Source: Candidatus Methanomethylicia archaeon
Lineage (GTDB): Archaea; Thermoproteota; Methanomethylicia; CALHIW01
Direction: 5' to 3'
DNA: 64,000 nt
NCBI GenBank assembly: GCA_038845975.1
Contig: JAWBQF010000010.1
Location: 1-64,000, forward strand
How positions within the stretch are numbered: position 1 is the first letter of the stretch; the number at the start of each line of letters is the position of its first letter. Under the pieces are notes generated by a model. It saw nothing but the letters and a program-made list of their open reading frames with translations, did not search any database and was not told the origin of the DNA. Below are positions 168 to 25,319 of the stretch, one piece after another. The position numbers and the translations under genes were made by a program.

Positions 168-261
168 TAAAGATGTTAGATAAAATTTATTTAAGTATAC
201 TATTAAGATAAATAGGGGACACCATAAAATATTAGAACAAAAATTCAATTGCAAGATTTAG

Positions 262-374
262 TGGGGCCGCGGGGATTTGAACCCCGGACCATGCGGGCCC
301 TAGCTAATATAAGTTCAAGCCGCACATTCTAAACCAAGCTGAACTACGGCTTAGTGTACAGTTAACTGTACCCC
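262..374 (-). tRNA. tRNA-Pro(UGG) with two non-canonical introns: 3/4 (351-371, 21 nt) and 35/36 (300-315, 16 nt)
   Basis: Spliced form is GGG|GCCG UA GUUC AGCUUGGUUUA GAAU G UGCGG CUUG|GGC CCGCA UGGUC CGGGG UUCAAAU CCCCG CGGCCCC A. Intron 1 has a full BHB (GG-GGUG-GGG / CACU-AAG-CC). Intron 2 has a central helix GGCU/AGCU. Short variable arm; CCA not encoded. Confidence 0.85.
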
Positions 375-1227
375 ACCCCTTCAGCCCCTAAAATTAATTA
401 AAACTGGATTTATATATTTTATTCCAATGATGCTATGTCCAATTTTGTTTACTATAAATCATTTTGAAAACTTTCATTTCTATACCTCTTCTAATAACCT
501 TAGTTATTAAACGTTTTTCTATGAATCTATTTGAAAACTCTTAAGTGATTTGACTGATTGACTTAAATAGTAAGGTTTCAGGCGAGTTCAGAAATAGCAA
601 AGTAGGACATAGAGTATTCTTCGGGAGGAAACTATGATTTCAACATAATAGCAGAAAACTTAGCTACATGAAACATAATATACAAAGCTTCACTAATGTT
701 TTGAAAGTTTTCTATATGCTCTTTATATTACTCAGTATGATTAGACGTTTACATAAATGATCTATATAGCCTTAATATTCTAGTTAAATAATATACTTAA
801 ACTCTTAGGATTACTAGCAAACTACTACTGCTAACTTTGGATGCTAGATGGAGTTCCGATTTAATTAAGCATCATTATTATAATCTCTTCTTTAATTAGT
901 TATAGGTCTAATTGTAGTGTTTCTTTAAGCTCATCTCTTCACTTCATAATCTTAATATATAGTTTTAGGTCTATAAATACTGTTTAAGTTTCCTATTTTA
1001 GCGACTTGGTTTATCATGCTCTCTAAAATTGTGAAGTGTTGATAGGGACTTAGGATAGTATTTAAATTAAGGTAATTGTATACAATGTAGGAAGCTATAA
1101 AGCAATGATTGAATGTTGTTTAAACTGCTTTTATTCTATATTCATCGAAATCTTTAAGGAAAGAAATATATAATGGCTTCAAGTAGTAGTTTTCTAACTT
1201 ATAGGGATATTGATTAAGTTATAAGTA

Positions 1228-23363: not shown

Positions 23364-25250
23364 TTGAACATTGATGTATTGATCATAACTGAAAAACCAT
23401 CAGTTGCAAGAGTATTTGCTGAAATACTCTCTAAGAGTAAATATCGAATTATGTATAGTCATAACATTGAATACTATGTTTTTAATTTAAATAGTGAAGT
23501 ATGGGCTTCAATAGGTCTTAAAGGACATATTTTAAACTACGATTTTCCAAGTAAGTTTAATAAATGGACAGAAGTAAATCCACGTGATCTATTCTTCATA
23601 GACCCACTGCACGTCATCGAGAAAGGATGCTATAGATATGTTGAAGTCCTAAAAGATATTGGTAGAAACATACGTTACGCTCTACTAGCTCTTGATGCTG
23701 ATTCTGAAGGGGAAAGTATAGCGTTTGAAGTTCTTGAAATATTGAAGCAAATCAATAAGTACTTTGAAGCTAAAAGATTATGGTTTTCAGCAGTTACAGA
23801 AAGGGATATTTTGCATGCATTAAACAATCCTCAAGAGCCTAATAGACTTCTAGCTGAGAAATGCTTTACAAGAATGATTATTGACTTAACAATAGGATCA
23901 GCATTTACAAGACTTCTTACATTAAGCGTTAGAAAAACACTTCGTAACGCTCTTCCTAAAGGACATTTTCTAAGCTTTGGACCATGTCAAACGCCTACAT
24001 TATGGTTTGTAGTTCAAAGGGAAATTCAAAGAGAGAAATTTAAAGCTAGAAAGTTCTATAGGATTACATGTACGCTTAAAGCTAATGGATTAGTATTTGA
24101 AGCTGAACATTATAAAGGAAAAATAGATAGTAAAGAGGAAGCTGAGAAAATATATAGTAAAATTAAGAATGCATTGAAAGCCTATACTAGAAGCTTTAAA
24201 TCAAACATAAAAACTAAGAATCCTCCAACACCATTAAACACCATAGAGTTTGAAAGTAGAGTAAGTAAATTTCTAAACATTAGATCTAAAACAGCCCTAG
24301 ACATAGCAGAGAAACTCTACCAGTATGGATATATTAGCTATCCTAGAACAGAAACCGAAATATATGGACCAACAATAAACTTAAAAGAAATCGTTCAAAT
24401 GCTTTCAAAAAATATAAACTACAGTAAGTATGCTGAAAACCTAATTCTTAAAGGATTTAAGCCTACGAGAGGGGGGAGAGATGATAAAGCCCATCCGCCA
24501 ATACATCCAACAAGAATAGCTTATGAACAAGTTATTACTGAAGAATTTTCAAGAAATGCTTGGAGAATATATGACTTCATAGCTAGACATTTCCTAGCAA
24601 CACTAAGCAAACCAGCTTTAATTGAATCTCAACGTTTAGAGCTGGAAATTGAAGAGGAGAAATTTATAGCTGAAGGATTAAAAATTATTGAGGAAAACTA
24701 TCTCGAAATATACTTCTACGAGAAAATCAGTGAGAAAAAAATACCAAAACTAAACACTGGAGAGGAAGTTGAAGTATTGAAAATAGAATTGAAAGAAGGA
24801 GAAACATCACCACCACCATATCTCTCAGAGGCAGAACTGATAAAGCTAATGGAAGCTAAAGGAATTGGAACTGATGCAACAATTCAAGACCACATATATA
24901 CAAACATTAAGAGAGGATACTTCTACATTGAAAATAAACGATGTATACCAACACCTTTAGGCATACAGTTAATAAAGGCATTAGACAGCATAATACCTGA
25001 AGCCATTAGACCGGAAGTAAGAGCCTTTATTGAAACACAGATATTACAAGTTGCAAAGGGAATTAAGACAAGAAGCGAAGTAGTGGAGTTTGCTAGAAAA
25101 ACATTTCTAAACTACTATGATAGACTTGAAAAGAACATAAGTGAAATATCGAAAGCTCTAGCTCCACTAGTAAGGAAAAGCATACTTCTTACAAATATTA
25201 AGAGGAAAACTAGAAAATTTAAACGGGCCCGAGGGGATTTGAACCCCTGA
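23364..25250 (+). CDS. topA: Type IA DNA topoisomerase (archaeal topo I/III)
   Basis: ITEKPSVA, GLKGHI, DADSEGE, SFGPCQTPTL, GYISYPRTET, AHPPIHPT, GIGTDAT. Confidence 0.95.
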   Translation: MNIDVLIITEKPSVARVFAEILSKSKYRIMYSHNIEYYVFNLNSEVWASIGLKGHILNYDFPSKFNKWTEVNPRDLFFIDPLHVIEKGCYRYVEVLKDIGRNIRYALLALDADSEGESIAFEVLEILKQINKYFEAKRLWFSAVTERDILHALNNPQEPNRLLAEKCFTRMIIDLTIGSAFTRLLTLSVRKTLRNALPKGHFLSFGPCQTPTLWFVVQREIQREKFKARKFYRITCTLKANGLVFEAEHYKGKIDSKEEAEKIYSKIKNALKAYTRSFKSNIKTKNPPTPLNTIEFESRVSKFLNIRSKTALDIAEKLYQYGYISYPRTETEIYGPTINLKEIVQMLSKNINYSKYAENLILKGFKPTRGGRDDKAHPPIHPTRIAYEQVITEEFSRNAWRIYDFIARHFLATLSKPALIESQRLELEIEEEKFIAEGLKIIEENYLEIYFYEKISEKKIPKLNTGEEVEVLKIELKEGETSPPPYLSEAELIKLMEAKGIGTDATIQDHIYTNIKRGYFYIENKRCIPTPLGIQLIKALDSIIPEAIRPEVRAFIETQILQVAKGIKTRSEVVEFARKTFLNYYDRLEKNISEISKALAPLVRKSILLTNIKRKTRKFKRARGDLNP

Positions 25251-25319
25251 CCACCGGCTTTCTTCCTCATCCGCTAGCCAACCTGAGGCCGGCGCGCTTC
25301 CATACTACGCTACGGGCCC
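25224..25319 (-). tRNA. tRNA-Arg, most likely CCG, with two 11-nt introns (25274-25284 at 34/35; 25260-25270 at 37/38)
   Basis: GGGCCCG acceptor stem, A20, G73, short variable arm. The 29-nt anticodon-loop region gives an Arg anticodon only if two segments are removed. The first intron has helix GGCC/GGCU with 3-nt bulges. Confidence 0.75.

Follow-up and report, generated by a model that had tools for sequence, protein, structure and literature searches.

A candidate two-intron tRNA-Pro(UGG) gene in a Methanomethylicia archaeon, and a 5' leader predicted to take part in its splicing

The window analyzed here is the whole stretch of 64,000 nucleotides (nt) at positions 1 to 64,000 of contig JAWBQF010000010.1 (assembly GCA_038845975.1) from a Candidatus Methanomethylicia archaeon. 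Near its start lies a proline-like transfer RNA (tRNA) gene that is interrupted twice. All coordinates follow the window numbering and the gene is read on the minus strand, with G1 at 374 and A73 at 262. Exon 1 (372..374) is GGG, nt 1-3 of the tRNA. Intron 1 (351..371, 21 nt) separates nt 3 from nt 4 (position 3/4) and consists of the hairpin UACAG-UUAA-CUGUA, followed by CACU, the intron's strand of a predicted central helix, and by AA, which belongs to a 3' bulge. Exon 2 (316..350) holds nt 4-35: the rest of the 5' acceptor strand (nt 4-7, GCCG, 350-347), the D arm (GUUC/GAAU), UGCGG, and C32 U33 U34 G35. Intron 2 has 16 nt and occupies 300..315 in the parse that we favor, at position 35/36; the canonical alternative removes 298-313. 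Exon 3 (262..299) holds nt 36-73, namely G36 G37 C38, CCGCA, the variable loop UGGUC, the T arm CGGGG-UUCAAAU-CCCCG (286-270), the 3' acceptor strand CGGCCCC (269-263), and the discriminator A262. The anticodon-stem strands UGCGG (324-320) and CCGCA (296-292) enclose 23 nt, i.e. a loop of 7 and 16 extra. The encoded 3' end lacks CCA.

The region upstream of G1 is ordered as well. The leader segment GGGGU (375..379, minus strand), invariant in the five known orthologues, supplies bases to the outer and central helices of the splice motif described below. AA separates it from the leader heptamer GGGGCUG (382..388, minus strand), a near copy of the mature 5' strand GGGGCCG that we call the surrogate acceptor strand. 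The heptamer is complementary at 7/7 positions, with one G.U pair, to the 3' acceptor strand 269-263, and the match is 7/7 in all five orthologues. An A/T-rich, TATA-like box, AUAUAUAAA (409..417, minus strand), lies about 21 nt upstream of the heptamer and is identical in 5/5 orthologues. By the promoter spacing rule for archaea, its position predicts a transcript start at or adjoining G388. On the other side of the gene, a run of five U residues (239..243, minus strand) begins 19 nt past A73; oligo-U is an archaeal terminator, and the run is likely the transcription stop.

Removal of both introns yields a 76-nt cloverleaf with all stems paired (acceptor 7/7, D 4/4, anticodon 5/5, T 5/5). The split acceptor strand, GGG and GCCG on either side of 21 nt, is thus present as a preliminary description of this DNA had reported. 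That description also foresaw that the gene would be mislabeled as Ser(UGA), and this is what happens: ARAGORN reports tRNA-Ser(tga) at 261-353. The Rfam tRNA model matches model positions 4-67 only (36.7 bits), a partial match of the kind foreseen for a split acceptor strand.

We looked for splice motifs with a bulge-helix-bulge (BHB) scanner. The scanned geometry comprises an outer helix, a 4-bp central helix (H), a 3-nt bulge on each strand that is cut after its second base, and an inner helix, which agrees with the archaeal motif as described in the consulted part of PMC4090602. For a cut after 372 with the exon resuming at 350, the scan gives a complete central helix (4/4), an outer helix of 2 bp, and an inner helix of 5 bp. 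In particular, GGUG (377-374) pairs with CACU (356-353) in the central helix, G379 and G378 pair with C348 and C349 in the outer helix, and UACAG (370-366) pairs with CUGUA (361-357) around the loop UUAA in the inner helix. The bulges are G373 G372|G371 and A352 A351|G350. As predicted from sequence, the motif has the strict hBHBh' form, with flanking helices on both sides. On its 5' side, the leader upstream of G1 supplies both bases of the outer helix and three of the four in the central helix. When the letters of the leader and the intron are shuffled, an equally good motif arises at the same place in 9 of 200,000 trials. Because G371 and G350 are both G, the junction could be written 3/4 or 4/5 from this sequence alone. 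The first intron base is A in three of the five orthologues, however, which fixes the junction at 3/4. Two other arrangements were considered and rejected. The top-scoring BHB-like motif (cut after 381, resuming at 334; H4 A8 B3) would remove nt 1-17. If the heptamer is instead read as nt 1-7 proper, followed by a 35-nt intron at 7/8, 1/4 central pairs form by hand count.

The gene has few relatives. Among 61 genomes searched, which include this genome (G000) and one other genome of the genus (G001), full-length matches occur in these two only, and the G001 copy is 95% identical. An exact-pattern scan of metagenome contigs adds three further copies. In the resulting five-way alignment (A1), the exons vary at a single base, in the D-loop, and the remaining differences lie in the leader spacer, the two introns, and the flanks. 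The 3' flank diverges while the TATA-like box stays identical. All 55 cells of the intron 1 motif are paired (55/55), and the inner helix shows one compensatory change from A-U to G-C as well as changes from C-G to U.G. The conservation pattern argues for selection on the gene. A scan of genome contigs for the leader-intron pattern returned at least 118 stretches; 79 of the 80 listed are bacterial records, which we take as chance matches.

The same leader-intron core, with a 14-nt intron, occurs in the tRNA-Trp gene of this genome (C21:19521-19409). A search with this gene against the same 61 genomes returned 30 loci. Ten of them carry the 3/4 signature (G000, G001, five genomes of family f2, one of f8, and two of f6), and four Trp genes that were read, from families f3, f4, f5, and f7, lack it. 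The central helix is complete (4/4) in 15/15 Pro-like and Trp sequences, with six distinct combinations of its two strands. In the alignment of Pro-like and Trp sequences (A2), 97.6% of 84 cells are paired. The leader base at -2 and its intron partner are GC in six sequences, CG in five, and UA in three; the leader base at -1 and its partner are UA in nine and CG in five. None of 500 shuffles matches the observed paired share or covariation score, a figure that is not a probability because the sequences are relatives. Sliding the partners by one to three columns lowers the pairing to 27-48%. These compensatory changes at two leader positions are the strongest evidence in this analysis, by sequence comparison, that the leader lies within the splice site.

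Several points weigh against a leader-built splice site. Unconstrained minimum free energy (MFE) folding yields neither BHB of the gene, and the unconstrained MFE structure of the precursor (-52.4) differs from the BHB fold. In addition, the central and outer helices of intron 1 are invariant across the five orthologues, so that this set is uninformative about them either way, and their covariation comes from the Trp genes, which are kin and not independent. We nevertheless consider the dependence of the full BHB on leader bases, as originally claimed, to be upheld by the strict motif, by the compensatory change in the orthologues, and by the leader-intron covariation. Since leader bases are part of the splice motif, the leader would still be attached when the endonuclease acts. 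As to the accompanying claim that splicing precedes 5' trimming, the leader pairing is supported, and it is from this pairing that we infer the order.

What, then, would the heptamer do? We examined 22 genes of this genome in which +1 could be set. A heptamer matching at 7/7 positions, 9-17 nt upstream of +1, is found in 6/7 genes that have an intron no later than nt 10 and in 0/15 others (Fisher p = 9e-5, with a threshold that was chosen after seeing the data). The six genes are the Pro-like gene, Pro(GGG), two Gln genes, Lys(UUU), and Met; the seventh, Trp, matches at 5/7. The 6/7 match of Lys(CUU) at -37 is the 3' end of a neighboring tRNA. Each heptamer matches the acceptor type of its own gene (Gln, Lys, Met, Pro, Trp), and where it differs from the real strand the difference is C-to-U, which preserves pairing. 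Across the class, Trp genes with a 3/4 intron have the heptamer at 7/7 in 8/10 cases and at 5/7 in the other two; these genes are kin rather than independent tests. Among MFE folds computed for the five Pro-like precursors, 4/5 show the heptamer paired with the 3' strand, at 37 C as well as at 75 C. Model fold energies of the gene under study are -28.2 kcal/mol for surrogate pairing together with the BHB, -18.1 for the split real acceptor stem, and -13.2 for the BHB alone. The heptamer likely holds the 3' strand while the real 5' strand builds the BHB, and it may thereby prevent the RNase P site from forming before ligation. More broadly, we propose, tentatively and with somewhat less than even confidence, that a leader-encoded surrogate 5' acceptor strand maintains a tRNA-like fold in the primary transcript and enforces a splice-first, trim-later order. 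This would hold for the present lineage and might extend to every archaeon whose tRNA genes have introns near the 5' end.

The heptamer test has weaknesses beyond its post hoc threshold. The BHB-guided parser resolved 24/37 T-arm candidates and left 13/37 unparsed. Eight unresolved candidates were read by hand (Trp, Ser UGA, Ser CGA, Arg CCG, Arg GCG, Arg CCU, Met, and Pro UGG on C43). Moreover, among the four Trp genes without a 3/4 intron, three have no heptamer, and the fourth (L217) has a 6/7 match at -26.

In the alternative that survives best, the heptamer plays no part in processing and could be a relic left by the duplication or recombination through which the intron arrived; in this gene it could instead pair with the D arm (GCUGAA/UUCAGC) and so lengthen the outer helix of the BHB. 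The leader of Pro(GGG) repeats nt 1-9 of the spliced tRNA, as a copy of an uninterrupted gene would, and leader bases 387-380 of the gene studied here can pair with nt 11-17a, as seen in one fold and in the top BHB-like match. Against this alternative, families f1, f2, f6, and f8 all retain the heptamer next to a changing spacer, its changes are compatible with G.U pairing, and each copy fits the acceptor type of its own gene. Pairing between the leader and the D arm, for its part, is impossible in the f2 Trp genes and in Pro(GGG). We regard a heptamer without a role in processing as unlikely, yet as a serious competitor to the surrogate-strand proposal.

The Pro(GGG) gene (C24:18463-18579, plus strand) has introns after nt 7 (12 nt) and at 28/29 in the anticodon stem (15 nt). 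Either its leader copy or the real nt 1-9 could serve as the 5' splice partner, with the same product. A literature search of titles and abstracts returned nothing about leaders that copy the acceptor strand, but this does not amount to proof of absence.

The second intron decides the identity of the tRNA. Removing 315-300 (35/36) leaves the loop CUUGGGC with anticodon UGG, whereas removing 313-298 (37/38) leaves CUUGAAC with anticodon UGA. At 35/36, the central helix is complete (4/4, with G30 G31 C32 U33 paired to AGCU), the bulges are UG|A and AG|G, and the outer helix is 2 bp in a shifted register. The central helix is 4/4 in 5/5 orthologues. The pair i2:i10 runs through AU, GU, and GC among the orthologues, and six extra pair types occur under the 35/36 parse versus one under the canonical parse. 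The intron's 3' end, AGCUAG, is similar to the 34/35 introns of two Arg genes, Arg(CCG) (window 25319-25224) and Arg(GCG). These sister introns have a central helix of the GGCU/AGCU type, and the two genes can be read as Arg only with an intron that splits the anticodon (H4 A2 B0; H4 A2 B4); the central helix of the Arg 34/35 intron in G001 is 3/4.

The body of the tRNA is also Pro-like. It is of class I, with a 5-nt variable loop, discriminator A262, and first pair G374-C263; the Pro identity set includes A73 and G1-C72. Among the mature tRNAs of the genome, Pro(GGG) comes closest (62/76 identical), and its gene on C24 shares the last 34 nt and the trailer with the present one without a difference. 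The anticodon-loop pattern N-U-NGG-G-C is common to this gene, Pro(GGG), and Pro(CGG). Since Pro(GGG) and Pro(CGG) genes exist elsewhere in the genome, UGG completes the set. A class II Ser(UGA) gene, read by hand, is present at C28:11945-12053. We therefore place intron 2 at 35/36 with good, though not full, confidence, a choice based on the sequences of the gene and its relatives that would give Pro-UGG.

Against this placement, the inner helix at 35/36 is a single base pair in this gene (the relaxed hBH form), compared with 3 bp in three orthologues (L175-L177), and the pair statistics over the five orthologues are not significant (303/500 shuffles reach the observed value). The canonical BHB at 37/38 also forms, in 5/5 orthologues, and its nearest-neighbor energy is lower than that of the 35/36 fold in 3/5 of them (G000, +3.9 for 35/36 vs -1.3 for 37/38). 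It has the full anticodon stem as outer helix, a 3-bp inner helix, and a central helix of 3/4 with a U.U mismatch, and shuffled introns match its quality in only 2,794/200,000 trials. In Arg(CCU), a central helix with the same third-position mismatch is the sole option; since the mismatch is tolerated there, it does not disqualify the canonical parse. Splicing at 37/38 would produce a class I tRNA with a Pro-like body and the anticodon UGA, as the sole product or beside Pro(UGG). Such a tRNA would have no plausible charging enzyme, however, because it has neither the long variable arm of the Ser genes of this genome nor G36. Prolyl-tRNA synthetase requires G36. Furthermore, a proper Ser(UGA) gene is already present. 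Under the 37/38 parse, U34:i14 is paired in 0/5 orthologues, no compensatory change is seen, and one pair is broken in L177. Mature position 37 would also vary between A and G, though the exons otherwise differ at one D-loop base. Splicing at 37/38 thus appears improbable. The proposal of an intron inside the UGG anticodon is favored by the tRNA body, by the Ser(UGA) gene elsewhere, by the pair changes, and by the Arg sister introns; the competing 37/38 motif, often the more stable of the two, is what tempers it.

A check for another Pro(UGG) gene in the genome had been called for, and the assembly does contain one, on C43 (about 383-506, plus strand), which is half of what had been named beforehand as refuting the proposal. 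This second gene has the acceptor stem GGGGCUG/CAGCCCC, an encoded CCA, an insert in the D-loop, and a 16-nt canonical intron with a perfect BHB (H4 A7 B3), and Pro(UGG) genes of its type occur in family f4 of the class. With a conventional Pro(UGG) gene on C43, the interrupted gene is in principle dispensable, which counts against its being in use. On the other hand, C43 is a compositional outlier for its size and the bin (93% complete) is 4.3% contaminated, so C43 may belong to another organism. The C43 tRNA was not found in G001, which is 62% complete, and matches to the C43 flank there reach only 71-74%.

That the locus is a redundant or decaying paralogue, a chimera, expressed little or not at all, that joins a 3' half like that of Pro(GGG) to a leader and 3/4 intron like those of Trp, with Pro(UGG) supplied by the class-typical C43 gene and its perfect canonical BHB, would account for the final 34 nt identical to Pro(GGG) and the leader-intron core identical to Trp, but is very unlikely, given that every stem is kept in the five orthologues, with differences confined to loops, introns, and leader spacer and with changes that preserve pairs, that the TATA-like box is identical in 5/5 against a diverging 3' flank, and that the C43 gene went unfound in G001 and is possibly foreign.

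The enzymes for such a pathway are largely encoded. Two paralogues of the splicing endonuclease EndA (PF01974) are present, at C1:60193-60450 (99.6 bits) and C30:24213-24473 (60.5 bits). The first aligns with the catalytic subunit of A. pernix (3P1Z_B) with an E value of 5e-51. Its Crenarchaea-specific loop aligns ungapped, and K39/K41 stand opposite K44/R46 of 3P1Z_B. Hirata et al. linked K44/R46 of the crenarchaeal loop to broad specificity, in the consulted part of their paper (PMC3241643). Among solved structures, the second paralogue is nearest to the EndA proteins of M. kandleri and M. jannaschii and weakly similar to the beta chain of A. pernix (E 8.5e-4). By eye, this second protein (C30:24213-24473; L032:1246-1788) has Tyr, His, and Lys in the usual regions, and it may not be purely structural. 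A broad-specificity, two-paralogue EndA of the crenarchaeal type is thus supported by homology, in agreement with the relaxed-specificity enzyme that had been postulated for the host. RtcB and the RNase P protein Rpp29 (C28:24062-24304) are encoded as well.

Two further results tell against a functioning pathway. RNase P RNA was not found in the 93% complete assembly with the models RF00373 or RF02357, the latter of which matched no control genome; the RNA of this genome may be unassembled or divergent. Of 21 runs listed for the locus, 18 contain at least part of a 3-kb stretch around it, and none is an RNA run. The sources of the runs are hot-spring metagenomes or coded organisms. Four DNA runs aligned to 120-560 contain no join across either intron and no intron-free allele, with 315-389 covered by one run.

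Weighing these points, we consider it likely that the locus is a working tRNA-Pro(UGG) gene with three exons (nt 1-3, 4-35, and 36-73) that matures by the following path. The transcript probably begins at the leader heptamer GGGGCUG, which would pair with the 3' acceptor strand in the precursor. The real 5' pieces, thereby free, would fold with the next five leader bases and the intron into the strict BHB. The crenarchaeal-type two-paralogue endonuclease could then cut after G3 and before G4. The same enzyme would cut the second BHB, which splits the anticodon between G35 and G36, and RtcB would ligate the exons. Only after ligation would the contiguous real 5' strand displace the surrogate and allow RNase P to cut at G1.

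Other tRNA genes of the genome are unusual too. Most of the 37 T-arm candidates are interrupted, many two- or threefold; Met (C50:8063-8215) has three inserts. ARAGORN misnames several: it gives Ser for the gene described here and for Leu(UAG) on C34, and Pro or Leu for Arg(CCG). Pro(CGG) is missed by both ARAGORN and the Rfam tRNA model. The second tRNA gene of the window (25224-25319, minus strand), called Pro(agg) or Leu(caa) by ARAGORN, is best read as Arg(CCG) with two anticodon-loop introns, one of 11 nt at 34/35 (H4 A2 B0) and one of 11 nt at 37/38 (H 3/4). The 37/38 motif forms properly only once the 34/35 intron is out. Arg(GCG) (C21:2801-2904) has the same layout. A Pro-like gene at C57:547-656 (minus strand) has the acceptor strand GGGGCCG, A73, and the loop CUAGGGA, with the apparent anticodon AGG, which is unusual for archaea. 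It carries about 35 extra nt in the variable region, with no clean BHB fit, and C57 is the strongest tetranucleotide outlier of the assembly. The window also holds a dispersed repeat of about 60 nt, at 120-169 and at about 33867, which occurs 21 times in G000. It has the hairpin core GGGAGAGAACTCCC and a conserved tail, and probably represents an insertion-sequence end or a miniature mobile element. The copy at 120-169 lies about 90 nt beyond the 3' end of the tRNA, near the contig start, and has a very high summed contig depth in four hot-spring runs.

The leader-intron covariation is direct comparative evidence for bases outside the mature tRNA in the splice site of an ordinary, unsplit archaeal gene, and a leader within the splice site would fix the order of the processing steps. 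If the leader copy works as proposed, it is a simple RNA device that orders maturation and would help to explain why acceptor-stem introns persist. On the practical side, because standard finders mislabel or miss this gene and many other tRNA genes of the genome, codon-reading capacity would be misjudged.

The comparisons with known systems draw on the consulted parts of the papers cited. Among the tRNA introns of Thermoproteales, those at 3/4 are presented as an extreme case (Sugahara et al. 2008, cited in Yoshihisa 2014, PMC4090602), which agrees with the provenance first given for them. The present gene resembles these cases in its BHB-type acceptor-stem intron, in a genome with many non-canonical and multiple tRNA introns, and, probably, in the two-subunit EndA. 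It differs in its lineage, which is Methanomethylicia-like. The tRNA-Pro(UGG) of Pyrobaculum islandicum (PMC4090602) is the same isoacceptor and also has multiple BHB introns, at 25/26, 37/38, and 56/57, but those listed there all lie outside the acceptor stem, and none splits the anticodon.

Split and permuted tRNA genes (Randau 2005; Soma 2007; PMC4090602, PMC4033280) offer a closer parallel to the leader, since bases outside the mature tRNA help to form the BHB there as well. With such bases in the splice motif, the endonuclease must act before end trimming, in split and permuted genes and in the gene described here alike. Unlike those genes as they are described, the present one is a single co-linear transcript, five leader bases are involved, and the splicing cut leaves the leader on.

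In Thermoproteales, intron families common to several tRNA types are attributed to transposition of introns (Fujishima 2010, cited in PMC4090602 and 10.64898/2026.10.13.758758). Like them, the leader-intron core (GGGGUGGG...CACUAAGCCG) is common to two tRNA types, here the Pro-like gene and the tRNA-Trp of the same genome. Unlike them, the shared part includes leader and exon bases, and the core may stem from recombination between genes with the same acceptor stem rather than from intron movement alone. The 3/4 intron position is already known. What is new is the lineage, the comparative evidence for leader bases in the motif, and, as read from the gene sequence, the putative co-occurrence in one gene of introns at 3/4 and within the anticodon, along with the leader copy of the acceptor strand.

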